A DNA stretch of 64,000 bases from Candidatus Falkowbacteria bacterium. Lineage in GTDB: Bacteria > Patescibacteriota > Patescibacteriia > UBA11705. Location of the stretch: positions 55,225-119,224 of the forward strand of contig DOZJ01000002.1 in the NCBI GenBank assembly GCA_003518055.1, in the 5' to 3' direction. Position numbers and translations under genes: made by a program. Under the pieces are notes generated by a model that saw nothing but the letters and a program-made list of their open reading frames with translations, had not been told where the DNA came from and searched no databases. Numbering within the stretch: position 1 is the stretch's first letter; each line of letters opens with the position of its first letter. This document shows, in pieces, positions 1,379 to 62,700 of the stretch.

Positions 1379-1520
1379 TATCAAGTCATAAAACAAAATT
1401 AGAAGGTATTTACTTAAAATAATTTGTAATTAGTCGAAATTAGGCTGTCTACCGATAAATTTCTCGCCGAAGGACGAGTCAGTCCTATGGCTGACAACAA
1501 ATTTCCCAACTTCTATTAAT

Positions 1521-1603
1521 TTCATTTCTCTAAACCCGCTACCCGCTACCCGCTACACGCTAAAAGCTAAAAGCTATAAGCTATAAGTAAAACGCTATTC
1601 GCT
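1521..1603. repeat. Short tandem repeats abutting a start codon: 3x 'cccgctac', then 'aagctaaa' and 'aagctata' units, ending ...cgctATG
   Basis: Direct reading of the sequence. 7-8 bp periodicity. No Shine-Dalgarno. Confidence 0.8.
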
Positions 1604-2593: not shown

Positions 2594-3408
2594 ATATGGA
2601 TTTGTCTATCGTAATATTAAATTACAAATCAAAACGGCTGGTTCGAAACTGCATCCGCGCCATCAAGGAGTCGGTGATTAAGGCTGAATATGAGATAATT
2701 GTGGTTGATAATGATTCCGGTGATCGCATCGCCGAAGATTTGAGTCAATACGCGCCTGATGTTCGTTTTCTCTCGTCCGACCATAATCTTGGCATGGGCG
2801 GCGGCAACAATATCGGCATTCGCGCGGCCGCGGGAAAATATGTCATGATCATGAATCCGGATATTTTTGTCTTCAAAGATTCCATTCAGCGGCTCTACGA
2901 TTTTATCGCTCAGAATCCGGATATCGGTCTGGCCGCGCCGCGCTTGTTAAACCCTGACCGGAGTTTACAATATACCTGTTATGAGTGGTATGGCCCGTTG
3001 ACACCACTGTACCGCCGGACATTTCTCGGCCGGCTGAACTTTGCCGCTCGGGACATCGATCGATTTTTGATGAAAAATTTTGATCATTTGTCGATCAAGG
3101 ACGTTGATTGGTGTCAGGGATCATGTTTCATCGTTCCGAAAAAAGTTTTTGATCAAGTTGGATTGTTTGATGAACGATTTTTTATGTATTTTGAGGATAC
3201 GGATTTATGCCGGCGGATTTGGGCCGGTGGTTATCGCGTCACCTATGTCGGTCCGATTGAAGTGATTCACATGCACATGAAAATGAGCCGTGGCGGCCTA
3301 TTTCAACTATTTACCAACAAACTGACTCGTTTGCATCTCGCCAGTTGGATGCGTTACCTCTGGAAGCATCGATCACGGGAAACACAACCATCAAAAACAA
3401 ACAGCTAA
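2581..3408 (+). CDS. Glycosyltransferase family 2
   Basis: 'SIVILNYKS...VVDNDSGD' GT-A fold motifs. 13-nt overlap with the upstream GT2, which suggests an operon. Confidence 0.75.
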   Translation: MADIDMDLSIVILNYKSKRLVRNCIRAIKESVIKAEYEIIVVDNDSGDRIAEDLSQYAPDVRFLSSDHNLGMGGGNNIGIRAAAGKYVMIMNPDIFVFKDSIQRLYDFIAQNPDIGLAAPRLLNPDRSLQYTCYEWYGPLTPLYRRTFLGRLNFAARDIDRFLMKNFDHLSIKDVDWCQGSCFIVPKKVFDQVGLFDERFFMYFEDTDLCRRIWAGGYRVTYVGPIEVIHMHMKMSRGGLFQLFTNKLTRLHLASWMRYLWKHRSRETQPSKTNS

Positions 3409-3521
3409 AAGTATTTAAAAGCGAATTTACATTCATTTTCTTACTCTATCTTCTTCTTGTATTTGTATTCGTCGTCTCATAATTGTATTTTATCCTCTTA
3501 ATTATCTAAAATTTTACCACC

Positions 3522-8102: not shown

Positions 8103-8144
8103 TCTAATCTCGAATCTCCAATCTCTTAATCTCTTAATCTCTTC
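8103..8144. repeat. Tandem 7-8 bp repeat (t)aatctc(t), about 5 units, directly upstream of dnaE, ending ...tctccccctATG
   Basis: Direct reading. The same unit recurs at 57619-57668. Confidence 0.8.
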
Positions 8145-11100: not shown

Positions 11101-11648
11101 AAGAAACCGACCCCGAAGAACAAGAGGAGCGGGCTACGGTTGTGACTGCGGGCGTTATCGGCAGCCTGACTAAAATTATTACCGCCAAGGGCGACCCCAT
11201 GTTATTCGTCCGGCTGGAAGACGCGTTTGTCGGGGTTGAACTGTTGATTTTCCCCAAACTATATGAGGAAATTGGCGACAAGATTCAAGAAGAAAAAATT
11301 ATGATGGTAACCGGCCAGTTGAGCTACAAAGACGCCGAACCAAAGATCTTGGTCAATAATTTATGGGAAATCAATCAAGACAATCTGGATTCGGTTGTCC
11401 AATCGGTACGGGTGTATGAACCGCCGCGATTCAACAAAAAAAATATTATTATCAAATATCCCAAAGGCAGTACGCACGAACTGGCTGATCGCATCAAGCA
11501 TCTCTTCCGATCGTTTCCCGGGACGAACACCATTTTTCTCCATGTGGACGCGCAAATCATCAAAACCAACTTCAAAGTCAAATACTGTCCTAATTTTGAG
11601 CAAAAAGTTCAGGAATTGCTGGGCAAAGACGCGATCAAGATCAAATAA
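8157..11648 (+). CDS. dnaE: DNA polymerase III alpha subunit
   Basis: N-terminal PHP domain 'HLHVHSHYSLLDG...ALTDHG'. 1163 aa. Conserved polymerase core. Confidence 0.95.
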   Translation: MSQFVHLHVHSHYSLLDGLAKIDDLVGKAAADGMPALALTDHGVMYGSIEFYQKCRKAGIKPIIGVEAYIAKFGHLVKDSSREKRFHVILLAKNNTGYKNLIKLTTIAHLVGFYYKPRIDWDLLKEYHEGIICASACQQGELANAILNENLDAAEEVARKYLALFGEGNYYLEVQHHPNLPKQKIVNDGVFKIGKKLNIPIIATNDVHYLNTEDAEAHDILICLQTKKKVHDENRMSYLGEDFSLYSTAQMQGFFRANPEVLDNTVKLAEQCDVDITLGQIQLPSYDLPAGQTAFMALTAACQTGITERFQFDPAQQDTDRQKQIIERLNYELGIIEKTGYASYFLIVMDFIVWAKKNGIVVGPGRGSAAGSLVAYLTKITNIDPLQYDLLFERFLNPDRVSMPDIDTDFADIRRSDVIRYVEEKYGKDNVSQIITFGTMAARVAIRDVGRVLDVPYSFCDKVAKQVPMGMSIDDSINQNKEMKSLYESNSDAKRLLDFARKLEGVCRHTSTHACGILITPKPLTEYTPVQYSATSDEDTVSQYSLHPVEDLGLLKMDFLGLKNLTIMQHATEIIEKIHGLKLDLDALPLDDEKTFKLFQQGKTTGVFQFESQGMKKYLKMLKPTQFEDLIAMVALYRPGPLNSGMVDEFIDRKHGRKQISYPHEIMREPLKNTYGVIVYQEQVMQLSKDMAGFTGGQADTLRKAMGKKIADLMAKMKLEFITGCEKNKLPKRLAEETFASMEKFAEYGFNKSHAACYALIAYQTAYLKANYPAEFMASLLTSDQENMDRVAIEIDECKQMKIKVLPPDVNESFTTFTVVAESLAAGNPTIRFGLQAIRNVGHGVVKAIIRERKDHGRFADFSAFLQRVKSKDLNKKSLDGLAKSGALDNFIGRSLVLENMDKILLYIKAVDEEQNTNQTNLFALGGGQSLPSLNLIEYPEAAKKQRLSWEKEFLGLYVTEHPFSEFEDRLKDIIVPLHKIKETDPEEQEERATVVTAGVIGSLTKIITAKGDPMLFVRLEDAFVGVELLIFPKLYEEIGDKIQEEKIMMVTGQLSYKDAEPKILVNNLWEINQDNLDSVVQSVRVYEPPRFNKKNIIIKYPKGSTHELADRIKHLFRSFPGTNTIFLHVDAQIIKTNFKVKYCPNFEQKVQELLGKDAIKIK

Positions 11649-11790
11649 AGTTTTTTGCCTTGGATTGGCGTTTCAGTCTATGGTATAATACAGATAGTAA
11701 TTTGGTGTTAATTGCCAAGTTATTTGATGCTGGCCGAATCCGGTCTTGATAGTAATTAATTTTTTATCCAATATATTTTAATTTTTCTCT

Positions 11791-12933
11791 ATGAGTTCAC
11801 ACGCAGCCAATAAGGTGGGGATTTCCAAACTTTATGTCAAATTCATCGCGGTCTTTGTTGTCTTGACCATAGTGTTGATTTTTGTCATCTTTTATTTTTC
11901 ATTTTCTCGCGCCTTGATCCGCATCACGCCCAAACCGGCGTCGGTCGCGACCGATTTTATCGCCGATATCAATACTCAGGATAATGAACCCACAGCCGGC
12001 ACGCTCAAAGGATTTCTATTTGAAACCGAGGTTGATATGACCAAGGAATATCCGGCCACCGGGACCAAGGATGCGGAGGGCAATGTCATCGGACAGGTTT
12101 CGATTATCAATAAACGGACTGTTAACCAGCCTCTCGTCGCGACTACTCGGCTGATCACGACTGATGGTGTGCTGCTGCGAATCAAAAACCGCGTGGATGT
12201 TCCCGCCGGCGGATCGGTCAATGCTGATGTTTACGCCGATGATCCATCGAGCTTTACCACCTTGGCGGCAACCAAATTTACCATTCCCGGCTTGTCTGAA
12301 AGCCTCCAAAACGAAGTGTACGCTGAGAGCAAAACTTCATTGAATAGCGCTCCCGGAGCGTTAAAAGTAGTCAAATCTGTTGATGTCGCCCGCGCCAAAG
12401 ATGATTTAACCGCCGCTTTATATCAAAAAGCTTTGGCTGATTTTGAAGCCGAGGTCAGCGAAGGTTACGTTGCGGTTTTGGTTGATAAAAAAGTGGTCGA
12501 AGAAGCGGTCAGCGCCGGTATCGATGATGTGGCGGAGACCTTTACTGTCCGGCAAAAGATGAATGTCACCCTGATTGGACTCGAACAGCCGGCGATCGTC
12601 AGCCTGTCGGCCGAGCGGTTGAGGGAACTCGTCACGGGCGAGCGGGAGTTGAGTGAGATAATGTTGGATAAATTAACTTACGTGGTGCAAAATTATAATC
12701 AGGAAAACAAAACCGCCAATATCAAAGTGCACGCCGAAGGTGAAACCGTATTAAAAGAAAACAGTGAAATTTTGGACAAAAGCAAAATCGCCGGCTTGAG
12801 CGACAAAGGGGTGGAATTATATCTCGATAGTTTTGATGAAATCGAATCAGTTGAAGTTCAGCTGTCGCCATTTTGGGTCAAACGCGTACCGTCTTTACCT
12901 GATAATATAGTTATCGAAGTGGTCACGGATTAG
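11791..12933 (+). CDS. Hypothetical membrane-anchored protein (single N-terminal TM)
   Basis: 380-aa ORF with a TM helix at residues about 17-38. No recognisable motifs. Confidence 0.5.
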   Translation: MSSHAANKVGISKLYVKFIAVFVVLTIVLIFVIFYFSFSRALIRITPKPASVATDFIADINTQDNEPTAGTLKGFLFETEVDMTKEYPATGTKDAEGNVIGQVSIINKRTVNQPLVATTRLITTDGVLLRIKNRVDVPAGGSVNADVYADDPSSFTTLAATKFTIPGLSESLQNEVYAESKTSLNSAPGALKVVKSVDVARAKDDLTAALYQKALADFEAEVSEGYVAVLVDKKVVEEAVSAGIDDVAETFTVRQKMNVTLIGLEQPAIVSLSAERLRELVTGERELSEIMLDKLTYVVQNYNQENKTANIKVHAEGETVLKENSEILDKSKIAGLSDKGVELYLDSFDEIESVEVQLSPFWVKRVPSLPDNIVIEVVTD

Positions 12934-13049
12934 ATCTTATTTATATTCGATAAAAAAATGTGTCATCTTTCGAGAACATCAGGATGACACATTTTTTATC
13001 AAAAAAGAACCGTGTTTGGTTCTTGTTTATTCAATGATTGCCGACAGTT

Positions 13050-13379
13050 TTACATCTTGTTACGTTTCATGTAAACATAATAAAGTTTCATTTGAAACCA
13101 TTCCCCGCGATCGGCCAGATCATTTGGTTCTGGACATTTCCTGACATCAAAGCTGGTGACCATTGCGTTGCCCGGCAGAAGACCCAATCGATGAAGTTCA
13201 GATGCGAATACGGCTGCGGCTCGCTCATGAAGCCTATCGACAGATTCGTCAATGATCACGATTGGTGTTCCGGCTTCCCATGCCATTAGGAGTGTCTCCG
13301 TTTGCGGGTGAAGAATCTGAGGATCATTCCCATCAGAGTCAGTTCGGGAGACTTTCCCGAACCGGAGCAATAACTGCAC
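13050..13379 (-). CDS. Hypothetical ORF overlapping the zinc-ribbon gene in another frame; possible Toprim-like remnant or frameshift partner
   Basis: 109 aa. 'TPIVIIDESVDRL' loosely resembles a Toprim acidic motif. 94-nt out-of-frame overlap with 13286..13486. Confidence 0.25.
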   Translation of the reverse strand: MQLLLRFGKVSRTDSDGNDPQILHPQTETLLMAWEAGTPIVIIDESVDRLHERAAAVFASELHRLGLLPGNAMVTSFDVRKCPEPNDLADRGEWFQMKLYYVYMKRNKM

Positions 13380-13486
13380 TGTACCAATTGAGGTATGGCA
13401 CTGTGTCGATCTTCATCAAGGAATCGTGGAATATAGTATTCTCCTACTCCTTTGCAGACAGGACATTTCCTGCCAAAGATTGCCAT
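13286..13486 (-). CDS. Small zinc-ribbon protein (CxxC...CxxC)
   Basis: 66 aa 'KCPVCKG...CSYCSGSG'. Strong SD 'gggagg' 5 nt before the ATG. Consensus-type promoter upstream. Confidence 0.4.
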   Translation of the reverse strand: MAIFGRKCPVCKGVGEYYIPRFLDEDRHSAIPQLVQCSYCSGSGKSPELTLMGMILRFFTRKRRHS

Positions 13487-13518
13487 TTTTACCTCCCAAG
13501 TGATTTGGAATACTTAAT

Positions 13519-13547
13519 ACTATATCACAAGGATTTTTTATTGTCAA
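13519..13547 (-). promoter_or_regulatory. Promoter TTGACA-17-TGaTATAGT (minus strand)
   Basis: Reverse complement of 13519-13547 reads ttgaca-ataaaaaatccttgtga-tatagt. Confidence 0.4.
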
Positions 13548-13924
13548 TGAATCGGTTTGACGTTATGCGTTGTTTTATCTATAATTAACTTGCTCGCTGG
13601 TGATTGGGTCAGCTACCATCTGGCCGTCCTTTAATAGGACTTAAATCAGCCAAGAATTTAACTAAGCGGCGAGAACAATCAAAGAAATTAAGAGCTCCAA
13701 TTATTGTCATAATGTCTTGAACTTTTAAGGGATCAAGGAATCAATGGTGAACAATAGCGGAGAACGTGGGTGGAAACGCCGTCAATTCGATGGTCCCAAG
13801 GTTTATAGCCTTGTTTTTTATTTATATTATTACTAATGACGAATATACTACGAATATACTAAAACAAACTTAGGCGGTTGCTAAATTCGTAGATAAGTAG
13901 TCGATTTGTAATTGGTAACAAATT

Positions 13925-14362
13925 ATGAAAGCCCTGCTCCAACGCGTGAACCACGCGAAAGTCACAGTTGATCACAAGACAGTCGGCGAGATCGGCCGGG
14001 GGATTTTGATTCTGCTCGGAATTGATCGGGCTGATGACGCGGGTAAAATAAAACCGTTGGCGGATAAAATTTTAAATTTACGGATTTTTGCCGGTGCTGG
14101 TGGGGAATTTGATCAAGCGGTGCTTGATATCAAGGGTGAAATTTTAGTTGTTTCCCAGTTTACCTTGTGCGGTTCGTGCGCCAAAGGCCGGCGGCCGGAT
14201 TTTATGAGCGCAGCGGATCCGATTGTGGCTAATGATTTGTATAAAAAATTCGTGGCGGAGCTCAAGGCATCAGGTCTGACCGTTGCTACCGGCGAATTTC
14301 AGAAAATGATGAAGGTTGAATTGGAAAATGATGGACCAGCCACGTTTATAATCGAAAAATAA
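13925..14362 (+). CDS. dtd: D-tyrosyl-tRNA(Tyr) deacylase
   Basis: 145 aa, 'QRV..A.V....GEIG.G.L.LLG' start and 'VVSQFTL...NDGPATF' core, collinear with Dtd. Confidence 0.9.
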   Translation: MKALLQRVNHAKVTVDHKTVGEIGRGILILLGIDRADDAGKIKPLADKILNLRIFAGAGGEFDQAVLDIKGEILVVSQFTLCGSCAKGRRPDFMSAADPIVANDLYKKFVAELKASGLTVATGEFQKMMKVELENDGPATFIIEK

Positions 14363-14369
14363 TAAAAAT

Positions 14370-15017
14370 ATGTTTTTAGAAGATTTAAATGTAAATAAAA
14401 GTCGGCCACCACAGAGCGAACGCGATATGGCTAAAGAAAAGCTTGATCGGGTGGTGACTGAAAACATCAGGATGTTAAAGACCGAAGGCTATGAATCTAC
14501 GTCTGATGAATCAATGGGCGGGAACGCCAGAACATTTAACGTTGCTGGTTTAAATATCTTGATGACATGCAAAGGAATGAATGCCTATTGCGATGAGGAT
14601 GGTATCTTAAAACAGTTTACAAACTATGAGAATCAGGTAAGGAGTGGAAGTCGGAGGCATATAACCTTTCGTGTCGGCATCGATGTCAGTGAATATTTCC
14701 AACGCCACAAACCGACCGCTGGGTTAATTGTTGAAGTTTATGGCACTGAAAACGCCACTCCTGAAATCAAAAAAATATTCAGAGAGACTCAGCACCGCTT
14801 CAATGTTGAATCCGCCAAGAGCTTTCATGATTTAAAAATCGCCGTCGCGCTCATGGGCGAGCTGGAATCATCAACCGGTGAAACTATATCCACGGCAGAG
14901 CTGTTACAGCGTCTTAACGAAGTTCAAACTTCTCGCAGCAATGCCGCGCTGCTTCCTCGGGAGTTTGGCCTCAGGTACAAGGTGATTGAATTGTTGAGAA
15001 ATGAAATTGTCCATTGA
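14370..15017 (+). CDS. Hypothetical protein
   Basis: 215-aa ORF, no motifs recognised. Confidence 0.45.
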   Translation: MFLEDLNVNKSRPPQSERDMAKEKLDRVVTENIRMLKTEGYESTSDESMGGNARTFNVAGLNILMTCKGMNAYCDEDGILKQFTNYENQVRSGSRRHITFRVGIDVSEYFQRHKPTAGLIVEVYGTENATPEIKKIFRETQHRFNVESAKSFHDLKIAVALMGELESSTGETISTAELLQRLNEVQTSRSNAALLPREFGLRYKVIELLRNEIVH

Positions 15018-15099
15018 AATTGGTTGTTGATGATTTGTTTTATGGGTGAAATTCAATGTTTAGATTATCATCACATCAAATTTATGGGCTTGATTAAAT

Positions 15100-15730
15100 A
15101 GATAATCCCCACTTTAGTGGAAGGGTTTTATGAGATATCAGTTCTTTTCCAACACAACATATTTTGTTACCTACAAAACATGTAATAATGGATCGTATTA
15201 TTTTTCTGATGAGGAAAAAGATATTATCTTATCGAAATTGCTAGAAGCCCGGTCAAAATTCATACCCGGATTAAAAGCGTTTGCCATTCTTTCCAACCAT
15301 TATCATCTATTAATTGAAAATGTTGATAGTCGGGCCGCCCAAAAGTTTTTCCAACTATTAAATGGTGGTAGCTCGTTCATTATTAATAAGGATAAAAATA
15401 GTAAATTTAATTATTGGGGGATTCAGGACCGAATCAATTGGCCGGTTAAGACTGAGGGAAAGTTTTTTCAATTTTTAGCGTATGTGGTGGCCAATCCGTG
15501 GCGTCATGGTTTGGTGCGGGAAATAAGTGATTTAAAAGGTTATCGGTATTGTAATTATGACCAAGTTTGCGAAGACTATGGAGAGGCGTTTATACAAGAT
15601 TTAATTTTAAATCGTATTAAGAAAGATGATGAATGAGGTGTTTTCCCCACTAAGGTGGGGCATATTTAATTCATGTAATATAAAAAGAAATAAAATTCCT
15701 TATGTCCCACTTTAGTGGGAGGGTCTATAA
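15100..15730 (+). mobile_element. IS200/IS605-like or REP-RAYT element: Y1 transposase flanked by palindromic hairpins
   Basis: Near-identical hairpin copies 'cccactttagtgg(a/g)agggt' at 15106-15129 and 15704-15727, plus 'ccccactaaggtgggg' at 15645-15660, bracket the 168-aa HuH gene. Confidence 0.6.
15130..15636 (+). CDS. IS200/RAYT-like HuH tyrosine (Y1) transposase
   Basis: HuH motif 'NHYHLLIE'. 'NYWGIQDRI' and C-terminal 'NPWRHGLV' match the COG1943/RayT signature (NPvkaGLV). About 165 aa, typical size. Confidence 0.7.
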   Translation: MRYQFFSNTTYFVTYKTCNNGSYYFSDEEKDIILSKLLEARSKFIPGLKAFAILSNHYHLLIENVDSRAAQKFFQLLNGGSSFIINKDKNSKFNYWGIQDRINWPVKTEGKFFQFLAYVVANPWRHGLVREISDLKGYRYCNYDQVCEDYGEAFIQDLILNRIKKDDE

Positions 15731-15764
15731 AAAACGATAGAATTAATATTTTCTTTATAATAAT

Positions 15765-17525
15765 ATGAACGAAGATCAATTAAAAAAAATGCGTCACTCT
15801 CTCGCCCACGTAATGGCTCAAGCGGTTTTGAAGTTTTTTCCTGACGCCAAATTAGCGATCGGTCCTGACATTGATACCGGTTTTTATTATGATTTTGACT
15901 TGGGTGGCCAGTCATTCTCACCGGAAGATTTGAAAAAAATCGAGAAACAAATGAAAAAAATCATCGCCGGTAATCAGAAATTCGAAGCTTATTCCTTACC
16001 GCTGTCCGAAGCCAAAGAAAAAATGCAGGGCAACCCCTACAAGGTTGAGTTAATCGATGAACTTGGGGGTGCGGGGGAGACGGTTATTAATTTTTACAAA
16101 AATATCGACGGCAACGGCCAAACCATGTTTAATGATATGTGCCGCGGGCCTCATGTCGAGTCCACCAAAGCGGTCGGCGCCTTCAAAATTGACAAGGTCG
16201 CTGGCGCCTATTGGCGGGGAGATGAAAAAAAACCGATGCTTCAGCGGATTTACGCGTTGGCTTTTGGCACCCAAGCGGAATTGGAACATTTTCTAACCAT
16301 GAGGGCTGAGGCTGAACGCCGCGATCACCGAAAACTGGCCAAAGAGTTGGGCTTGATTGTCCATTCCGAATTGGTCGGACCGGGCCTGCCGCTTTACACG
16401 GGCAAAGGCGCGTTGCTTCGACGACTGATCGGCGATTATTCGCGTGAACTTCGAGACCGTATGGGTTATGTCGAAGTTCATACGCCGCAAATGAACAAGG
16501 CCGAACTCTTTAAACGCTCCGGCCATTATGACAAATACAAAGATGATATGTTCCGCGTGGTGTCCAATTATACCGATGAAGAATATTATCTTAAACCCAT
16601 GAATTGTCCTCAGCACACGCAGATTTTTGCCGCGGATATCCGCAGCTACAAAGACTTACCGGTTCGCATCGCTGATTTCGCCAATCTCTATCGAGATGAA
16701 AAACCCGGAGAGTTGAGCGGTCTGACTCGTCTACGGTGTTTTGCTCAGGACGACGGCCATTGTTTTTGCCGCGAGGATCAGATTGAGCAGGAATTCAGCC
16801 AGCTGCTCGAAGCGGAAAAGGAAACCCTCGCGACTTATGGGATGGACTATCATGTTCGGTTGTCATTCTCTGATAAAAATAATATGAAAGCCTATCTCGG
16901 TGACGAAGCGGTGTGGTCCAAGGCGGAGATCATGCTCGAAGCTTTGGTTAAAGAAAAAAATGTCCCTTACGTTATAGCCGAAGGCGAAGCCGCTTTTTAT
17001 GGCCCCAAAATGGACATCATTGCCAAGGATTCGCTCGGCCGCGAGTGGCAATTGTCGACGATTCAAATCGATTTTAATCTGCCTGAGCGGTTTGAACTGG
17101 AATACATCGGCCAAGACGGCAAAAAACACCGTCCGGTGATGATTCATAGTGCTCTAGTCGGTTCGCTGGAACGTTTTATGGCCGTCGTGATTGAGCATTA
17201 TGCCGGGGACTTTCCTTTGTGGCTCTCACCGGTTCAGGTCAAGCTGATTTCCGTCGGTGAAAAACATCACGACTATGTGGTTAATTTGGCTGCTAAATTA
17301 AAACAGGAAAAAATTCGAGTGGAGATTGATTTGAGCGATGAAACCGTTGGCAACAAAATTAGAAAATCAGAAAAAGAAAAGAATCCTTACATGTTGGTCA
17401 TTGGTGACAAAGAAATGGAATCGACCAAATACACCATTCGTCAGCGTAATGAATCTGACCAACGCGAACTCAGTCTGGACGAGTTGGTCACGGAAATTGT
17501 CCAGAAAGTGGCTGCCAAAAAATAG
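15765..17525 (+). CDS. thrS: Threonyl-tRNA synthetase (short form lacking N-terminal TGS domain)
   Basis: 586 aa. 'HSLAHVMAQAV' editing-domain start, class II core and anticodon-binding domain collinear with ThrRS. Confidence 0.9.
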   Translation: MNEDQLKKMRHSLAHVMAQAVLKFFPDAKLAIGPDIDTGFYYDFDLGGQSFSPEDLKKIEKQMKKIIAGNQKFEAYSLPLSEAKEKMQGNPYKVELIDELGGAGETVINFYKNIDGNGQTMFNDMCRGPHVESTKAVGAFKIDKVAGAYWRGDEKKPMLQRIYALAFGTQAELEHFLTMRAEAERRDHRKLAKELGLIVHSELVGPGLPLYTGKGALLRRLIGDYSRELRDRMGYVEVHTPQMNKAELFKRSGHYDKYKDDMFRVVSNYTDEEYYLKPMNCPQHTQIFAADIRSYKDLPVRIADFANLYRDEKPGELSGLTRLRCFAQDDGHCFCREDQIEQEFSQLLEAEKETLATYGMDYHVRLSFSDKNNMKAYLGDEAVWSKAEIMLEALVKEKNVPYVIAEGEAAFYGPKMDIIAKDSLGREWQLSTIQIDFNLPERFELEYIGQDGKKHRPVMIHSALVGSLERFMAVVIEHYAGDFPLWLSPVQVKLISVGEKHHDYVVNLAAKLKQEKIRVEIDLSDETVGNKIRKSEKEKNPYMLVIGDKEMESTKYTIRQRNESDQRELSLDELVTEIVQKVAAKK

Positions 17526-21137: not shown

Positions 21138-21176
21138 CCCTAAACCCTAAAAGCTAAACGCTAACCCCTAAACCCT
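21138..21176. repeat. Telomere-like heptamer repeats CCCTAAA / (a/c)GCTAAA abutting the rfbC start (...ccctATG)
   Basis: Direct reading of 'ccctaaaccctaaaagctaaacgctaacccctaaaccct'. Confidence 0.8.
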
Positions 21177-21632
21177 ATGATCTCCGGAGTTCAAATCAAA
21201 CCCATCAAACGCTTCTGCGATGACCGCGGTTATTTTTGCGAAGTTATTAAGTTCGGTGAAGACACTTATCACGAAGTCAAACAAACCAGCTATACCGAGA
21301 CGCATCCCGGCGTGATCAAAGCTTTCCATTGGCACAAAAAACAATGGGATGTCTGGTTCGTGGTTCGGGGTATGGCTCAGGTTGTGCTTCATGATATGCG
21401 CGATGACTCGCCAACCAAAGGCGAAACTCAAGTCATTTGCGCCGGCGAAGATAACCCGGTCTTGATTGCCATCCCGCCATTTGTGGCCCATGGTTATCGG
21501 GTTCTGGGAAACGAGAAGGTTTGTTTGTTTTATCACACGAGCGAAGCCTATGATCCGGCCAACCCGGATGAAGAGCGGATCGAATTTGACGACCCGAAAA
21601 TCGGCTTTGACTGGACCACCAAAAATCGTTAG
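21177..21632 (+). CDS. rfbC: dTDP-4-dehydrorhamnose 3,5-epimerase (short cupin form)
   Basis: 'DDRGYFCEV' and 'AFHWHKKQ' correspond to RmlC 'DERGFF' and 'GLHFQ' motifs. Confidence 0.7.
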   Translation: MISGVQIKPIKRFCDDRGYFCEVIKFGEDTYHEVKQTSYTETHPGVIKAFHWHKKQWDVWFVVRGMAQVVLHDMRDDSPTKGETQVICAGEDNPVLIAIPPFVAHGYRVLGNEKVCLFYHTSEAYDPANPDEERIEFDDPKIGFDWTTKNR

Positions 21633-54186: not shown

Positions 54187-55545
54187 ATGTCAAAATACAT
54201 GTCTTTGAATCACCAGAAAGCTTGGGTGGTCGCCGTTGATATGGGGTATGGCCACCAGCGCGCGGCCGCGCCGCTCAAAAACTTGGCGTACGGCGGCGAA
54301 GTGATCAACGCCAATAATTACAAGGGGATACCAAAAGAAGATCAAGAGTTATGGCATGACAGCCGGCGATTTTATGAATTTATTTCTCGATTCAAAAATG
54401 TCCCCATCTTAGGCCGAGCCGCATTTGATTTATTTGATAAGTTCCAAGAAATACCGCCATTCTATCCCAAACGTGATTTGTCTGATCCGAATTTGCAGGT
54501 CAAATACATGCATCATTTGATCCAGAAAAAAGACTGGGGCAAGCACCTGATCCAGAAGCTCGACAAGAAACCCATGCCGTTGATTACCACGTTTTTTGTC
54601 ACCGCCTTTATGGCTGAACAATTTAATTATTCAGGTGATATTTATGCCGTCGCCACTGACACGGACATCAGCCGCAGCTGGGTGCCGATTGATCCGGAAA
54701 AGAGCCGAATCCGCTATTTTGCGCCGAGCCAAAGAGCTTATGATCGTCTCAAGCGGTATGGGGTTCAAGAAGACAAAATTTTTCTCACCGGTTTCCCACT
54801 GCCGATTGAACTCCTCGGCCAAAAAAGTCTTAATATTCTGAAGGGTGACCTCGGACATCGTCTGACCAACCTAGATCCCAACCGTAAATATATCGAGCAT
54901 TATGGCGAGAGTTTGGTTGAGCATCTGGGCAAAAATAATTTTCCCGGCAAAAAGCGTCATCATCCGCTTACTATTATGTTTGCCGTTGGCGGCGCCGGAG
55001 CCCAGCGTGAAGTCGGGGTCGCGGTAGTCAAGAGCCTTCGAGCCAAAATTAGACGCGGCCAGGTCCGCGTGATTCTCGTCGCCGGCACGCACAAAGATAT
55101 CAAAACCTATTTTAAACGAGAAATAATTTCCTTGGGCTTGGACAAACAGTTGGGGAGGGGAGTTATTATTATTCACTGCCTGAATAAGGAGCAATATTTT
55201 CGTAAATTCAACCGCGCGCTGCGCACCACCGATATCTTGTGGACCAAGCCGAGCGAATTGAGTTTCTATACCGCACTTGGTCTGCCGATTGTCATGGCGC
55301 CGCCGATCGGTTCGCAGGAAAAATTCAACCGCAAGTGGCTGTTTATGATTGGCTCGGGCGTGGAACAGGAAAGGGCTGAATACACCGACGAATGGCTATT
55401 CGATTTGATCAATACCGGCTGGTTTGCGGAAGCCGCAGTTAATGGTTTTCTCGAAGCGCCGAAATACGGCACCTACAACATTCAGAAAATTATCAGCGCC
55501 AAGCCGGAAGAATGTTTACGGTGCAAAACCGAGATGAGGTATTAG
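54187..55545 (+). CDS. GT28-family glycosyltransferase (MGDG-synthase/UgtP/MurG-like)
   Basis: N-terminal 'VAVDMGYGHQRAA' matches the GT-B N-domain G-G-H motif of MGDG synthase-like enzymes. 452 aa. Confidence 0.5.
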   Translation: MSKYMSLNHQKAWVVAVDMGYGHQRAAAPLKNLAYGGEVINANNYKGIPKEDQELWHDSRRFYEFISRFKNVPILGRAAFDLFDKFQEIPPFYPKRDLSDPNLQVKYMHHLIQKKDWGKHLIQKLDKKPMPLITTFFVTAFMAEQFNYSGDIYAVATDTDISRSWVPIDPEKSRIRYFAPSQRAYDRLKRYGVQEDKIFLTGFPLPIELLGQKSLNILKGDLGHRLTNLDPNRKYIEHYGESLVEHLGKNNFPGKKRHHPLTIMFAVGGAGAQREVGVAVVKSLRAKIRRGQVRVILVAGTHKDIKTYFKREIISLGLDKQLGRGVIIIHCLNKEQYFRKFNRALRTTDILWTKPSELSFYTALGLPIVMAPPIGSQEKFNRKWLFMIGSGVEQERAEYTDEWLFDLINTGWFAEAAVNGFLEAPKYGTYNIQKIISAKPEECLRCKTEMRY

Positions 55546-56456: not shown

Positions 56457-57416
56457 ATGAAAAAAATTATTTTAATTATAATTCTGATATTGCTGCCAAC
56501 CACCGTACTGGCCGCGTTTGATATTGATTTTACCTCTCAAGCTCCGGTCGGGGATTGGCGTCAACCGTGGCAGGATGCATGTGAAGAAACTTCGGTGGTG
56601 ATGGTGGATGCTTTTTATGGCGGTTATGACCTGACGGTTGATAAATCTGTGACCAAAATCAAAACTGTTTTTGCCATCAAAGAAAAATTTTTTGGTCCGA
56701 GTTATGATGAAACTGCCGGCCTTATCGTTGATATGATCAACCGGCATTTTCCTTGGGAATCGCGAGTGGTCGAAAACCCAACGCTTGATCAGATAAAGTT
56801 TGAGCTGGATGCCAGCCGTCCGGTTTTGGTGCCGGTTCATGGCGGTACGCTTAATAATCCCAATTATCATTCCGGCTCAATCGATTATCACATGATTGTG
56901 CTGATCGGTTATGACGACGCTCGCGGTGAATTTATGGCGCATGATCCGGGCACGCAATTCGGTTCTCGTCATCATTACAGTTACGATACCATTATGGCCG
57001 CCATGCATGATTTTTTGCCTAACGACCAGACATTAAGAGGCGCCAAAGTGGCGATTTTCACACAGCCTGACATTTCTCTCTCCGGTCAAACCGATGGCGA
57101 CAGGGACGGATTATTGAAAATTGACGAAATTAGATCAGGCGCCAACCTGTCACAAGCTGATACTGATCGAGATGGTTTTCTTGACGGCGAAGAAGTTCAG
57201 CAGGGGTATTCTCCGTTGGTGGCCGAGTTCAAACTGGGGGATAACCGATTGGTGCGCGACGCGGCGACTCAGCGGATCTATTTTATTTCCGGCAGCCAGA
57301 AAAGACATATTCAAACCCTCCCGACGGTATTCAGTTATGGCCGCCTTTATGGCGCGGTTGTTAATGTCAGCGCTAAATTCTTGAACAGTTTTGTTGACGG
57401 GCAGCCGATCCATTAG
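56457..57416 (+). CDS. Secreted papain-fold (C39-like) cysteine peptidase domain protein with Ca-binding D-x-D-x-D-G repeats
   Basis: Signal peptide. 'QPWQDACEETS' Cys context and a downstream His are C39_2-like. 'TDGDRDGLL' and 'TDRDGFLDGEE' repeats. Confidence 0.45.
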   Translation: MKKIILIIILILLPTTVLAAFDIDFTSQAPVGDWRQPWQDACEETSVVMVDAFYGGYDLTVDKSVTKIKTVFAIKEKFFGPSYDETAGLIVDMINRHFPWESRVVENPTLDQIKFELDASRPVLVPVHGGTLNNPNYHSGSIDYHMIVLIGYDDARGEFMAHDPGTQFGSRHHYSYDTIMAAMHDFLPNDQTLRGAKVAIFTQPDISLSGQTDGDRDGLLKIDEIRSGANLSQADTDRDGFLDGEEVQQGYSPLVAEFKLGDNRLVRDAATQRIYFISGSQKRHIQTLPTVFSYGRLYGAVVNVSAKFLNSFVDGQPIH

Positions 57417-57420
57417 CTTT

Positions 57421-57616
57421 CCCGCACTGAAGTACAGGAAAAATGATTCTGGCCGGTTTGGATCTTTTCCCGCACTAAAGTACGGGAAAAGAAGGATGGG
57501 AAAAATGGTTTAGGCCGGTTTGAATCCTTTCCCCGCACTAAAGTACGGGAAAAGAATGGTGGGAAAAATGATTTTAGCCGGTTTAGATATTTCCCCGCAC
57601 TTCAGTGCGGGAAGCG
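57421..57616. repeat. Tandem array (about 3.5 units of about 62 bp), each unit starting with a GC-stem hairpin ccc(c)gcac-t(a/t)(a/c)ag-t(a/g)cggg
   Basis: Units at 57421, 57468, 57531 and 57594. First and last hairpins carry reverse-complementary loops (ctgaag vs cttcag). Spacer parts are also repeated, so this is not a CRISPR. Confidence 0.75.
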
Positions 57617-57618
57617 GG

Positions 57619-57668
57619 CTCAATCTCTCAATCTTTCAATCTCTTAATCTCTTAATCTCTTAATCTCT
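57619..57668. repeat. Tandem 8-mer (c/t)aatctct x about 6, ending ...tctctcccaccccATG
   Basis: Same unit as the one upstream of dnaE. Confidence 0.8.
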
Positions 57669-57678
57669 CTCCCACCCC

Positions 57679-58128
57679 ATGTGCGCCGGTATTTCATTTC
57701 ATATTGATAAAATCAATCCTGAGGAACTGGATCGGTTTTTCCTGCCGGCAGAATACGATAGCCACCGCCGCGGCGACCGAGTTGAGGTTTTTTACTGGGA
57801 CCGTGATCCGTTTCTGCCGATTGAAGAAGACGATGGTGTTCATCTTTATCCTTGGGGCAACCGGGAAAAAGATTTGAAGCTGCCCAAAACCGGTTGGGCC
57901 AAGATTGAATCCATTCAAGATGGCCGCTGGGATTATCTGGCGCCGAAACTGGTCAAAATCCCCAGCCTGTCAGGCTATGAAAAAAAACACTGGTTTGGCA
58001 CGCCGGCCGGCATCAGAGGTATTAAGGTTCGCTTTCACAACCTGACTCGCGTTTATTTAGTCACCCAAAAAGCCGATCAAGAATTTTTCAGTAAAATCGG
58101 GCATGATCGGATGCCAATTCAATTTTAA
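57679..58128 (+). CDS. Hypothetical 149-aa protein with N-terminal Met-Cys
   Basis: Stop is 3 nt before the giant ORF start. Confidence 0.5.
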   Translation: MCAGISFHIDKINPEELDRFFLPAEYDSHRRGDRVEVFYWDRDPFLPIEEDDGVHLYPWGNREKDLKLPKTGWAKIESIQDGRWDYLAPKLVKIPSLSGYEKKHWFGTPAGIRGIKVRFHNLTRVYLVTQKADQEFFSKIGHDRMPIQF

Positions 58129-58131
58129 TTT

Positions 58132-61100
58132 ATGTCAGAAGGCGTCTCATACAATTCAAAAATTTCTCATGAGCTAACCGAATCCAAATCCGTCTTGGAA
58201 TCGGAGATTGAACTCATGGGCAATTTAAATCTTGCCAAAAAATATTTTCGAGAAGAAGAGGCTTTTATTTCCTATCTGAAAGAATTGAAAGGGCAAGAAG
58301 AAGAAAGCCAGAAAAAAAAGACCGACCTCCCGTTTGATCTTGATATCGAAGCCAAACAATTGGCTGAAATGCTGGCGGTCAAAGCTCAAGACAACATTGT
58401 TGGCAGTTTTTTGTTGTCCCTCGCTGGAGGCAGCCGGCTTTGGGCCCAGACCATTAAGTATTATCTTGATATGATCGGCGCTGATTGGGATGAATGGCAC
58501 CGATTGGGCCGAGATATTGAAGGACACGTGGAGTATGATTGGGATTTTCGATCCCGGGATCAGGCTCATGCTCTTGGGGCTTGTTTCAGAAATTTTGATT
58601 TTGACGGTTCGTATGATGTTGAAAGACTGCAGGTTTCGTTTGGTAGCCCGGAGCGGTTTCAAAACAAAAGGAACATCATGTTTTCTCGCTTTATCCGTTT
58701 TGGTCAGCAGCATATCAAGGCTGAATACAGGGAAGTTCAATCAGCTTTGTCATCTGTCTCAATCATCTCGGCCGACAGAATTGCGGACCGCTCATCTGAG
58801 TTGGTTGAAAATATTTTAGCAGGCATCCATGCCAAGCCTTATTCTGACCAAATACAAAATTTGACCAAAATGATAGAGACAGGCCTTGGCGATATTGTTT
58901 TGTTTCATTTGGAAGAATTTAAAATTCAGGATTCCGACCGGTCAGATTTGATTTATTCCATTGGTTCTCATGATCCGGAATTATTTTTTGCTCATTTTGA
59001 TGAATTCAATCTCATTGGACACGCTCAAGCTGAAGAGTTGTTTATGAATCTCTTGGACCGAGAGCCAAGGTTGGCTTTGGCTCACTTGGAGCAGTCTGGT
59101 TTGGATCCCAATCCGGTTATCGACTATCTGATTCACAATCACCCTAAACTTTTTATTCATTATTTGGATGAATTTCTGGTGACTCTGATCCCCGAAGGCA
59201 AAATGGCAGAGTGTGTTCACGCTATCAATAAATATTTTGACCGGCTTTATACCGGAAATCCGGCTAGAGCTGTCAATGAACTCTATGGCTTAAAAATCAA
59301 TAATCCGGTTATTAATGGTTTGATTGAAAAATATTATCTTGAAGCACTTCAAATATTTGTTCCTGATGTATATCAAGAGTTGTTAAAAATCCAGTCCGCT
59401 ATTGAAGACGAAGATAAGGATATAATTTTTTCCAAAAATCAAGATTTCCAACCGGTAATCAAATATTTTAAAGAGAAAGGTTTAAATCGGGGCTACGCTG
59501 ATATCCTTGCTTTGGCCGTTGCCGCAGATGATAAGCTGAGGACCATTAAGGCAACATATAATGGTCATGAGTATGATGAAGACATTAGTTTTCGTTATGG
59601 CGCGTCGCATTTTCGGGATGCTGACAATAGGATTGTTCCGGGTCATAGTTCATCTGAGGTGGTTCATCGTTATCTCATTGATAAATTTGTCCGAGAGGAA
59701 GACTGGCATAATGCTATCCATAGCTGGGTGGCCTTTTTCCGAGATGGGATGACGGCCAACTCGAACGATCTCGAGTTTTTTGAAGATCTGTTATTCAATG
59801 TATTGAGATCTGCGCCTGAAATAATTATGAATACTGCAATCTTGGAAGATCTGCCGAAATATCGATTTCCTCGGGAAAAAGAACTTCTTGATATCATGGT
59901 CAAGTTGACGGACGATTGGTTCTTTTTCCAGTCTGGTAAAAACGCCGAGGCTTTGCGCAGCCGGTTGAGCGAGTCGCAAAAATTGACTCTGATCAATAAA
60001 CTCATAGAGCAAAATCCGGTTTATCTGGCTGAAAAATTCAAATTGATCAGGCTCAAGAACAAAAAACAGGAATATGAGATGTTGCGCCGGTTGATCAGGG
60101 ATGGGATTGAACCGTTTAGCTATTTTTCTTCTCCCGGCCAAGCGCTCAAAATTTTACTGGCCAGCAATGTCGGTCGTTTGTGGGACGGCTATCAAGATCC
60201 GGAGCACAGGCGGGAAATAATCAGCCATCTTTTATCCATCAAGGATACGATCTCTCCGGAGACTTGGGATTTTATTCAATCAATTCAAAAAGAATCACAT
60301 CGTTCCTATGATATCAGTCAATTGTCCTTAGACAGCTTCAAAGCAATTGACTATGTTCGCCAAAATAAGCCTGAAATTTTTCAAAAGCTACAGGGACCGA
60401 GAGCTGACTTCAGGCTCAAGATGTTTGAATGTTTCGAGCGGCTTAATACCCAAAATGTCAATCAGCTGACGCGCATTTTGTCGGATATAGAAGAACTATC
60501 AGATGGTATCGAGTCTAAATTACGTCGAAAGGTTGAATCGTATTCTGTTGTTCGCAACGCTGCTCCGGCTGAGAGAGAGAGAATCATTAAAGATCAAATT
60601 CAAGCAGCGATTCACAATCTCAAAGAGCCCGAGAGAAGTATATATGGGACTCTGCGTTCAGCTTATAGTGATGAGGTCTATGATTATATCGCCTTGGCCT
60701 TGGCCACTCAAAGAAAATTGCCTGATTTGATTACTACAATCAATAAAGTTCAGGAAGGCCTCAAGGATGAATCGTCAAAGCGCTATATTTCCGAAGACAA
60801 GCTTTTAGATTTTTGTTTGCGGGACAATCAAATCACAGCCAGATACAACTTGCTCAGAAACAATGTTAGTCAATTAAAAGCATTCAATATATTATTTGGA
60901 GATAATTTGTTTGAATCTCCGTTTCAAGGCGGGCGACAGGAATTGCTGTACTTGGATCTGTTATTTGATGCCCCCCCGGACAGACAGCAGGCGATTTTGG
61001 GCGGAGCGGTTGACTTTGATTCACTGAGCCGCGGGTTGGAGCGGGTTGAAGTTATCAAGTTGACTTTGCAGCTGCTGCCATATTTGGAGTTTGAAAAAGG

Positions 61101-62700
61101 CCAAAGTGAAGTGGAGCTTTTTCAGGGGTATATCCGAGAATTTGGCCTCCTAAATGAGCCTGTAATTTTTTCTGAATACAAAAAAATCAAACAAGGCAGT
61201 GCAGTTTCTCCTGCCTTTGCTTCCTTGGGGGTAAAAAATTTGCCGGCAGTGGCCGGGGAATCAGAAACTGAAGCCAATCGCCGAATCAGCCGGATGCTCA
61301 ATAATATCAGGCACGTGATGAGGCAGCTGAGAGATGATATTATTTTGACCGGCGAAATCAACCCTGACCTTTTGACCAATGACTTAGCTTTGGCTGTTTT
61401 TCGGTCCTCTACTCATTTTGATGAAAGTCAATGGCGCCGGTCATATAGTTTTGAAAAAATGATTGCAGAATTTTATCAAGAAACGGATCAGGGGCTGATT
61501 GCCCCCTTGCCTCGGGAATACCGAGCTGAAATTTTCACGGTTAAAAAGCTGGCCGATGAGAATGAAATTCCGGAGTTTGAATTTTCAGAAGTATCAGCCA
61601 GTCAATTTGAGCGTTTTATCGCTGTCGCCAATGAAACTCTGCGTTTGATTGATTTTCATGGATCAGGCCCGGCTGCTTTCAGAGAAATTGCCACTCGCTG
61701 TCAAGCTGGTTTGCGTGAGTATCTGGACAGTTTATCAGCCAATCTTGAACAAACAAAATCCAACTCCAGTCTGCCGGCAGATAAAAAGGAAAAAATTATC
61801 TCTAGTCTGGAGTCACAGTTTAAAGCTCATCAACAGCTATTCCTAGCTCTGGATCACCCTGAAAACATTGTTCAGGCTTTAGCTGATTTTGAAATTCAGC
61901 AGCAAATTAAAAAAGAGAATAAGTATACCAGTCCCTTTTTACGTTTAGCTTCTCTAGTGGCCAGTTATGGGCAGGATCCCAAAGTGGCCGACCTTCTGCA
62001 GAATATCTCCAAAGAAGATGACATCAATTCGGCGGCCTTGCGTCAAATTGGTGAGTTGGTCAACAACAATTTAGCTCAACATGCATTGCCCGCTTTAAAT
62101 TTATCTAATAAACAGATCGCCAAGATAAGACAAATATTGGGCATATCGACATTTAGCGATGAATTGTCTCGGATTCAAGGTTATGAAAGCGGCCGGTTTG
62201 AAGAGTTCGGCATGCTGCCCACCCGTGGTTTTCTCGGAGAACTCAGCGGTTATTATTGCGACGCTTGCTGGACCAGCCGCACTTCTATCATGAAGGCAAA
62301 CCCTCGAATGACTGCGGTGGCGTTTGTCGGTAATTTGGAAAATGAAGCTCAGCGCAAAATTGTGGGTGGCAGTCTTTTGATTGAAACCGAAGCCGGCGGC
62401 GAAAAAGTGATGATCATTCGAGGCTTCAACCCAAAACAAAATACTCTGGCCGGCGCCAATGCTGAAGATTTTTTTGAACAATTTTCCAGTTCTGTGGCTA
62501 GAATTGCCAAAGACCGCGGCTGCACCAAAGTGATTGCTCCGGTTTTTAATCCGGGGGCCATGAGCAATCGTCAGGAGGTGTTGAGTTATATGGATAAGCG
62601 TTATAGCAAAAGTAAAAAGGTAAAACTTGATGAGGAGATATCTTTCAATGGTTATAATCTGGTTACCAGTTGCGTAGTAATACGCGATTTAAAGTCTTAA
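58132..62700 (+). CDS. Giant hypothetical cytoplasmic protein (1522 aa), no recognisable domains
   Basis: Uninterrupted frame. Largely helical-looking. C-terminal about 200 aa Gly/Cys-containing globular region. No signal peptide. Confidence 0.7.
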   Translation: MSEGVSYNSKISHELTESKSVLESEIELMGNLNLAKKYFREEEAFISYLKELKGQEEESQKKKTDLPFDLDIEAKQLAEMLAVKAQDNIVGSFLLSLAGGSRLWAQTIKYYLDMIGADWDEWHRLGRDIEGHVEYDWDFRSRDQAHALGACFRNFDFDGSYDVERLQVSFGSPERFQNKRNIMFSRFIRFGQQHIKAEYREVQSALSSVSIISADRIADRSSELVENILAGIHAKPYSDQIQNLTKMIETGLGDIVLFHLEEFKIQDSDRSDLIYSIGSHDPELFFAHFDEFNLIGHAQAEELFMNLLDREPRLALAHLEQSGLDPNPVIDYLIHNHPKLFIHYLDEFLVTLIPEGKMAECVHAINKYFDRLYTGNPARAVNELYGLKINNPVINGLIEKYYLEALQIFVPDVYQELLKIQSAIEDEDKDIIFSKNQDFQPVIKYFKEKGLNRGYADILALAVAADDKLRTIKATYNGHEYDEDISFRYGASHFRDADNRIVPGHSSSEVVHRYLIDKFVREEDWHNAIHSWVAFFRDGMTANSNDLEFFEDLLFNVLRSAPEIIMNTAILEDLPKYRFPREKELLDIMVKLTDDWFFFQSGKNAEALRSRLSESQKLTLINKLIEQNPVYLAEKFKLIRLKNKKQEYEMLRRLIRDGIEPFSYFSSPGQALKILLASNVGRLWDGYQDPEHRREIISHLLSIKDTISPETWDFIQSIQKESHRSYDISQLSLDSFKAIDYVRQNKPEIFQKLQGPRADFRLKMFECFERLNTQNVNQLTRILSDIEELSDGIESKLRRKVESYSVVRNAAPAERERIIKDQIQAAIHNLKEPERSIYGTLRSAYSDEVYDYIALALATQRKLPDLITTINKVQEGLKDESSKRYISEDKLLDFCLRDNQITARYNLLRNNVSQLKAFNILFGDNLFESPFQGGRQELLYLDLLFDAPPDRQQAILGGAVDFDSLSRGLERVEVIKLTLQLLPYLEFEKGQSEVELFQGYIREFGLLNEPVIFSEYKKIKQGSAVSPAFASLGVKNLPAVAGESETEANRRISRMLNNIRHVMRQLRDDIILTGEINPDLLTNDLALAVFRSSTHFDESQWRRSYSFEKMIAEFYQETDQGLIAPLPREYRAEIFTVKKLADENEIPEFEFSEVSASQFERFIAVANETLRLIDFHGSGPAAFREIATRCQAGLREYLDSLSANLEQTKSNSSLPADKKEKIISSLESQFKAHQQLFLALDHPENIVQALADFEIQQQIKKENKYTSPFLRLASLVASYGQDPKVADLLQNISKEDDINSAALRQIGELVNNNLAQHALPALNLSNKQIAKIRQILGISTFSDELSRIQGYESGRFEEFGMLPTRGFLGELSGYYCDACWTSRTSIMKANPRMTAVAFVGNLENEAQRKIVGGSLLIETEAGGEKVMIIRGFNPKQNTLAGANAEDFFEQFSSSVARIAKDRGCTKVIAPVFNPGAMSNRQEVLSYMDKRYSKSKKVKLDEEISFNGYNLVTSCVVIRDLKS

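Follow-up and report, generated by a model that had tools for sequence, protein, structure and literature searches.

A miniaturised SRAP-like protein encoded beside a member of a large uncharacterised protein family in Candidatus Falkowbacteria

The SRAP family (Pfam DUF159/SRAP, PF02586) includes YedK of Escherichia coli, HMCES of humans and YoqW/YoaM of Bacillus subtilis, the proteins with which we compare the gene described here. The biochemistry of crosslinking by YedK and HMCES has been studied (PMC9436759, PMC6821365), roles have been assigned to Cys2, Glu105 and His160 of YedK (PMC9436759), and Asn75 of YedK hydrogen-bonds the backbone of Cys2. An operon type consisting of LexA, SRAP, a small ImuB-C protein and DinB was described in the work that defined the family (Aravind, Anand & Iyer 2013, PMC3765255). 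Here, we analyse a stretch of 64,000 nucleotides from a Candidatus Falkowbacteria bacterium (assembly GCA_003518055.1, contig DOZJ01000002.1; hereafter the window), a member of the candidate phyla radiation (CPR), in which an open reading frame (ORF) of 149 codons, which we call mini-SRAP, is followed by one of 1522 codons. What is new at this locus is a DNA-repair protein of a known family that has become miniaturised and highly diverged; beside it stands a member of a large unnamed family. We consider it likely that the two are separate proteins of known kinds that have become neighbours by chance in part of the lineage.

The 149-residue protein and its likeness to SRAP

We assign the 149-residue protein with high confidence as a miniaturised, highly diverged SRAP (YedK/HMCES). 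The assignment is strong because fold, catalytic motifs and genomic context point the same way. Mini-SRAP has ∼50 homologue clusters at 40–80% identity, which is very high for a hypothetical protein of the CPR. In an alignment of 24 homologues (A1), Met1 and Cys2 are invariant (24/24), as are Glu77, Arg144 and Pro146, and Glu101, His142 and Asp143 are nearly so. The C-terminal motif H142-D-R-M-P is conserved to at least 90% and is paired by hhalign with H160-D-R-R-P of YedK. Taken as a whole, the pattern MC... WG... [KR]-x-E... G-Y-E... T-x-x-A... H-D-R-M-P resembles that of SRAP proteins. The AlphaFold2 model computed on the alignment is of high confidence (predicted local distance difference test (pLDDT) 93.8, predicted template modelling score (pTM) 0.88), and its predicted three-dimensional fold is that of SRAP (YedK/HMCES). 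Glu101, located in G-Y-E-K and at least 90% conserved in A1, lies, by the order of secondary structure elements, on the equivalent of the G-aromatic-aromatic-E-W strand that ends in YedK Glu105. A longer hhalign path of low confidence sets Met1-Cys2 against Met1-Cys2 of YedK and WAKIES against NARVET; the YedK sequence used had been checked against Protein Data Bank (PDB) entries.

Several observations weigh against this assignment. The hhalign comparison of the mini-SRAP profile with YedK is weak (E 0.012, probability 3%), no Pfam model (SRAP included) or NCBIfam model is matched at E≤1, and neither the mini-SRAP sequence nor the 24-sequence profile finds a PDB entry at E≤10. Scans with PHROGs and PADLOC returned nothing usable. 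With 149 residues, the protein is shorter than described SRAPs (220–260 residues). The Glu105 equivalent was placed from motif and strand order rather than by superposition, and the low-confidence hhalign path puts YedK Glu105 opposite Asp85 instead of Glu101. Furthermore, the position of YedK Asn75 is taken by a near-invariant Trp73 (GWAKIES versus INARVET in the low-confidence alignment). This replacement does not exclude activity, because the N75A exchange slows crosslinking by YedK only modestly (PMC9436759).

Cys2 is almost certainly the nucleophile of mini-SRAP. Cysteine is a permissive second residue for methionine aminopeptidase, and cleavage by this enzyme would expose Cys2. By analogy with YedK and HMCES, Cys2 would use its free α-amine and its thiol to attack the aldehyde of a ring-opened abasic site in single-stranded DNA, with Glu101 and His142 as a putative acid/base pair like Glu105 and His160 of YedK. 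The resulting thiazolidine DNA–protein crosslink would shield the lesion from breakage and error-prone bypass during replication. At the DNA level, the palindromic codons for Gly-His-Asp-Arg-Met-Pro create a terminator-like hairpin, GGCATGATCGGATGCC, at 58100–58115. We rejected it as a terminator: it is a coding palindrome, a false positive of the consensus scan, and it recurs at the same codons in L013.

The large protein and its C-terminal domain

The 1522-residue protein, taken for a giant orphan in the first-pass annotation, is a member of a large uncharacterised family: with residues 323–1522 as query, an exhaustive HMMER search of 1.84 billion representatives recovered 682 representative clusters at E≤1e-3, and 528 at the stricter limit of E≤1e-10. 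What defines the family is a conserved C-terminal module of ∼530 residues, which occupies the extreme C terminus in most matches, themselves 180–7691 residues long. A scan of GTDB genomes located the module in Peregrinibacteria, Gracilibacteria, Magasanikbacteria, Parcubacteria and other Patescibacteria, in one metagenome-assembled genome (MAG) of Bdellovibrionota, and in several MAGs whose records bear the title 'uncultured Gammaproteobacteria'. Among these last, at least two also carry mini-SRAP (L013, CAYPSS010000003.1, 62% identity; L018, CAYPKD010000001.1, 41% identity), and the Gammaproteobacteria taxonomy of these two records is probably wrong.

The ∼980 residues preceding the conserved module evolve fast. 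The N-terminal ∼800 residues are common to close relatives only, and the syntenic 1527-residue homologue P0052 shows 28% identity over residues 194–1521 (E 5e-158). The protein is acidic and contains no internal repeats. It has neither a transmembrane segment (Kyte-Doolittle maximum of 1.2 in a 19-residue window) nor a signal peptide to back a role in host interaction at the cell surface. Searches of Pfam, NCBIfam and PADLOC gave no match, and the PDB sequence search was blank or returned coiled-coil noise; the first-pass statement that neither protein has an assignable motif is thus borne out by the Pfam and NCBIfam searches for both. A ParB-like match (phrog_15396, residues 979–1076, E 0.006) stayed below threshold. 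At one locus (L012, 1324–5813), a family member is split into ORFs of 1198 and 253 residues by a frameshift or a genuine split. The 253-residue P0094 was accordingly rejected as a stand-alone family member, being the tail of a split gene, and 'stand-alone' C-terminal domains in databases can therefore be gene fragments.

An AlphaFold2 model of the C-terminal module, computed on a 19-sequence alignment, reached a pLDDT of 89.9. It begins with helices and continues, from about residue 1356 onwards, as a predicted β-α-α-β-β-β-α-β-α-β domain, whose mixed sheet and β4-α3-β5-α4 core are those of the GNAT fold. Among 147 representatives, Cys1379 (codon 62266–62268), Gly1412, Asn1479 and Asn1506 are invariant, Glu1370, Arg1430 and Pro1434 are 99% conserved, and Tyr1508 also belongs to the invariant or near-invariant residues of the domain.

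Sequence comparison does not favour the GNAT reading. None of 22 members of the large family matches a GNAT family of Pfam at E≤10, and profiles A2 and A3 match no GNAT among PDB chains. In the β4-α3 segment, the motif A loop Q/R-x-x-G-x-G/A, which binds the pyrophosphate of coenzyme A, is replaced by a conserved R-G-x-N-P-x-x-N, leaving no conserved Gly-x-Gly/Ala. Weak support for the fold comes from a viral structure library, which yielded GNAT matches for the domain, none of them significant. We therefore describe the modelled C-terminal domain as a GNAT fold with a family-specific Cys/Glu centre and do not call it an acetyltransferase. The large protein would be cytoplasmic, and judging from its predicted fold the domain is most likely a transferase for acyl or aminoacyl groups. 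The Cys1379/Glu1370 pair, which would lie on the substrate side near the acceptor site, may be a covalent or catalytic centre.

Genomic settings and the relation between the two genes

We compared the neighbourhoods of mini-SRAP in 13 distinct lineages. In five of them (L004, L008, L146, L147 and the contig of P0016) lexA stands directly upstream (Pfam LexA_DNA_bind and Peptidase_S24, E 1e-20 to 1e-30), separated by one inserted gene in two cases. Four of these five continue with a conserved ORF of 81–82 codons and, at a distance of two or three genes on the downstream side of mini-SRAP, a Y-family (IMS) polymerase gene. The large gene follows mini-SRAP in four lineages (the window, L010, L013 and L018), EamA follows directly without the large gene in two (L005 and L007), and the remaining two (L006 and L009) have other settings. 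Outside the paired loci, mini-SRAP is best kept together with lexA and the Y-family polymerase gene rather than with the large gene, and in Falkowbacteria mini-SRAP is ancestrally or frequently part of a damage-response cluster of lexA, mini-SRAP, the 82-residue ORF and the polymerase gene. The association with SOS genes holds for the family; the window copy itself has neither lexA nor a Y-family polymerase gene as neighbour, and in its sub-lineage mini-SRAP sits outside the cluster.

The 81–82-residue ORF (L004, 10684–10932; L008, 6825–7070; L146, 5181–5429) is 54–60% identical between genomes. Judged by length and location, it is a candidate for the stand-alone ImuB-C domain that Aravind et al. 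2013 described, but it has no Pfam match. Upstream of lexA in L004 (9320–9385) and L008 (4775–4835), both genomes share a symmetric arrangement of GTTCG-N6-GTTCGGT, TATAAT and TACGAAC-N6-CGAAC. It overlaps the −10 box and is a candidate for the operator that LexA binds. What tells against the SRAP reading of the window copy is that this GTTCG/CGAAC motif was found neither upstream of the window mini-SRAP nor anywhere else in the 64-kb window, and hence there is no evidence that the window copy is LexA-regulated.

The adjacency of mini-SRAP and the large gene (P0022 and P0052 in L010) is recurrent, not obligate. L005, the closest relative, has an 80% identical mini-SRAP and the same C39_2 and EamA flanks as the window without the large gene, and in L007 mini-SRAP likewise leads straight to EamA. 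A hidden Markov model search found no mini-SRAP in the DNA retrieved around large-family genes at nine other GTDB loci, which cover several CPR lineages, the Bdellovibrionota MAG and MAGs titled Gammaproteobacteria/Pseudomonadales. The gaps in the four pairs are also variable (3, 55, 98 and 277 nt). Synteny in L013 is as in the window (C39_2, mini-SRAP, large gene, EamA). In L018 the pair has other flanking genes, pyruvate kinase on the upstream side and PPDK on the downstream side, and its mini-SRAP falls into a different deep branch of the neighbour-joining tree from the other three paired copies. That the adjacency recurs in two distant mini-SRAP branches, and in one case between other flanking genes, speaks for a functional link of some kind, and thereby against neighbours by chance.

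On these grounds, mini-SRAP and the large GNAT-like protein might form a functional two-gene DNA-damage module, which we regard as unlikely. The GNAT domain could acylate the N-terminal Cys α-amine of SRAP and thus turn off crosslinking; alternatively, the SRAP–DNA crosslink or another repair factor could be what it modifies or processes. However, the closest relative keeps mini-SRAP and has lost or never had the large gene. The five lineages that pair mini-SRAP with lexA, four of them also with dinB, have no large gene within 6–10 kb of mini-SRAP, and a full-length large homologue in L014 has no mini-SRAP in the 2.6 kb upstream. Moreover, the large family is far wider (682 versus ∼50 clusters), spacing is not conserved, two terminator-like hairpins lie between the genes in L018, and the similarity to the GNAT enzyme NatD is at the fold level only. 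That the locus represents an unrecognised CPR damage module, with the GNAT-like domain controlling SRAP through acylation of the Cys2 α-amine or acting on the SRAP–DNA crosslink, strikes us as very unlikely. If true, the ∼530-residue C-terminal module would define a new family of enzymes in which a GNAT scaffold carries an invariant Cys/Glu centre.

The first-pass annotation brought up host interaction. That the large protein acts in this way, as an effector or interaction protein which an episymbiotic CPR cell directs at its host or prey, with no part in DNA repair, is quite unlikely. Such a role would fit the occurrence of the family in Falkow-, Peregrini-, Gracili-, Magasanik- and Parcubacteria and in a Bdellovibrionota MAG, the fast N-terminal ∼980 residues (syntenic orthologues share 28% identity, compared with 63% for the mini-SRAP encoded next to them) and the embedding of the C-terminal module in proteins of 6500–7700 residues. 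One family member also has a weak match to the polyvalent-protein domain LPD25 and another to SLT, but both are below threshold. The large protein lacks not only export and membrane signals but also adhesin-type repeats, no secretion-system gene lies in the neighbourhood, and the viral structure library held no related structures. It is extremely improbable that the small protein feeds the large enzyme as a member of the Ntn-hydrolase or class-II glutamine amidotransferase type: the Met-Cys N terminus alone had prompted this link, and the cysteine is almost certainly the nucleophile, but the modelled fold is SRAP and not the α-β-β-α fold of Ntn proteins. The chance that faulty assembly or annotation, with frameshifts, created the 4.6-kb ORF is close to nil, since beyond its unusual length and lack of family matches nothing suggests an artefact, and the idea is countered by three identical independent assemblies, syntenic full-length homologues and a C-terminal module found in hundreds of clusters.

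The window locus and its place among known systems

The window is an ordinary segment of CPR chromosome with dnaE, thrS, pyrG, murA-like and rhamnose-pathway genes and glycosyltransferases, and the public names of proteins identical or nearly identical to its own assign it to Candidatus Falkowbacteria. The two ORFs, their sizes, the Met-Cys-Ala-Gly start and the 3-nt gap reported in the first-pass annotation recur at the same coordinates in the ORF list (Table 1). Three contigs from separate assemblies (Logan, ENA and JGI) encode the 1522-residue protein with 100% identity, and it has full-length homologues of 1468–1544 residues; the long ORF is therefore no assembly artefact.

Table 1. Features of the mini-SRAP locus in the window
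Feature	Position	Strand	Basis or remark
Four ∼22-nt hairpin copies inside a 63-nt tandem repeat	57419..57613	+	Genome-specific intergenic element
(CTCAATCT/TAATCTCT)n 8-nt microsatellite, 6.4 copies	57619..57669	+	Directly 5′ of the mini-SRAP start codon
Mini-SRAP gene, 149 aa, start MCAGISF	57679..58128	+	ATG ORF
Cys2 codon	57682-57684	+	Mini-SRAP gene
Probable catalytic Glu101 codon	57979-57981	+	Mini-SRAP gene
His142 codon of HDRMP	58102-58104	+	Mini-SRAP gene
Large gene, 1522-aa soluble acidic protein	58132..62700	+	ATG ORF; alternative start 58216
Conserved, family-defining C-terminal module, ∼530 aa, residues 981-1522	61072..62697	+	HMMER and AlphaFold2
Predicted GNAT-like α/β domain, ∼residues 1356-1522 (last ∼165)	62197..62697	+	AlphaFold2 model

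The stop codon TAA of mini-SRAP (58126–58128) is followed by TTT and the first ATG of the large gene. On contig L001, one gene caller placed the start of the large gene at Met29 instead (1494 residues), with a GGAG ∼10 nt 5′ of that ATG. Translational coupling across 3 nt, as first proposed, is plausible but hinges on whether the large gene starts at the putative start codon at 58132 or at that at 58216. Both genes are probably co-transcribed in the window. The ORF directly upstream (56457–57416) matches Peptidase_C39_2 (E 7e-10) and starts with a signal-peptide-like N terminus, in agreement with its initial description as a secreted C39-like peptidase. Farther upstream, a DUF6938 protein (448–461 residues; 54187–55545 in the window) and a YibE/F membrane protein are kept neighbours at loci without lexA (L005, L006, L007 and L010), and they mark a stable syntenic block into which mini-SRAP appears to have moved.

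The structured tandem repeat and the 8-mer microsatellite that had been described in front of the pair were recovered by repeat scan, hairpin count and shuffle folding. The tandem repeat spans 57437–57613 (period 63, 2.8 copies, 84% matches), the hairpin core occurs four times in the repeat region against zero expected by chance, and the region folds more stably than 200/200 shuffles (z = −3.2). Rfam contains no match for the upstream repeats, and the hairpin unit was not found in the syntenic gaps of L005 and L010, at 144 other loci or in IMG/VR. Co-occurrence of pair and repeats across related genomes therefore holds for the pair, which recurs in some of them, but not for the hairpin repeat, which accompanies the pair in no relative. 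We take the hairpin repeat for an insertion specific to this genome and the microsatellite for a generic simple repeat.

A second occurrence of the TAATCTCT microsatellite lies at 8105–8143, directly in front of dnaE (DNA polymerase III alpha; 8157–11648), and both copies are followed by a C/T-rich stretch and ATG without a purine-rich Shine-Dalgarno sequence. We rejected it as a damage-regulon signal shared with dnaE, since its 23-mer is present in >120 unrelated metagenome contigs. Microsatellites of short period (6–10 nt) occupy many intergenic gaps, both in the window (1534–1605, 21138–21177) and in the related Falkowbacteria contig L010 (81–114, 1647–1681, 4344–4378, 9667–9701, 13717–13796); they are a feature of genome style, not a locus-specific signal.

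Other genes were noted around mini-SRAP in related genomes. Four-helix-bundle genes of the 23S_rRNA_IVP / bAvd type recur beside lexA or mini-SRAP at several loci (L146, 3066–3452; L147, 5940–6326; L004, 10962–11321 and 18092–18478; L018, 35–445). A few genes 5′ of lexA, the CPR contig L008 encodes a 908-residue protein with matches to Vault_3 and MVP_shoulder of Pfam (1246–3972), resembling the major vault protein. Downstream of mini-SRAP, L006 contains four tandem paralogous ORFs of ∼600–626 residues (8738–16459) that have no Pfam family and are unrelated to the 1522-residue protein by tblastn.

Falkowbacteria, as part of the CPR, keep an SOS-type damage-tolerance set of LexA, Y-family polymerase and SRAP. 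Mini-SRAP has drifted past the Pfam and NCBIfam models and the PDB sequence and profile searches applied here, so that such searches would call SRAP absent. A minimal SRAP of 149 residues marks the parts of YedK and HMCES that the crosslinking of abasic sites may not require. For the large protein, the orphan giant gives way to a family of hundreds of clusters, whose predicted GNAT-like end domain with an invariant cysteine gives enzymologists a defined target. That the two genes repeatedly, but not always, stand side by side is a lead that can be tested rather than a finding.

Compared with YedK, mini-SRAP is about one third shorter, lacking the ∼55-residue C-terminal extension after HDRxP and ∼18 internal residues. 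It differs from other SRAP proteins in lying below the reach of the Pfam model and of PDB sequence and profile searches, in the tryptophan at the Asn75 position and, for the window copy, in adjoining neither lexA nor dinB. The gene order of the LexA-SRAP-ImuB-C-DinB operons is matched in L004, L008, L146 and the P0016 contig by lexA, mini-SRAP, the 81–82-residue ORF and the Y-family polymerase gene, whereas the window copy stands outside such an operon and the small ORF has no Pfam counterpart.

The predicted topology of the C-terminal domain of the large protein superposes with GNATs (NatD/Naa40, 4u9w; bacterial 2oh1, 3lod and 1yre) at ∼3 Å over 120–146 residues. Like GNATs, the modelled domain has a conserved Arg-Gly that ends strand β4 and a conserved Asn that starts helix α4. 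Unlike GNATs, it shows neither GNAT sequence similarity nor the Q/R-x-x-G-x-G/A loop and instead has a conserved set of its own (E1370, C1379, R1430, P1434, N1479, N1506 and Y1508). The GNAT-like domain always follows a helical module of ∼360 residues, and together they usually end proteins of 1000–1700 residues.

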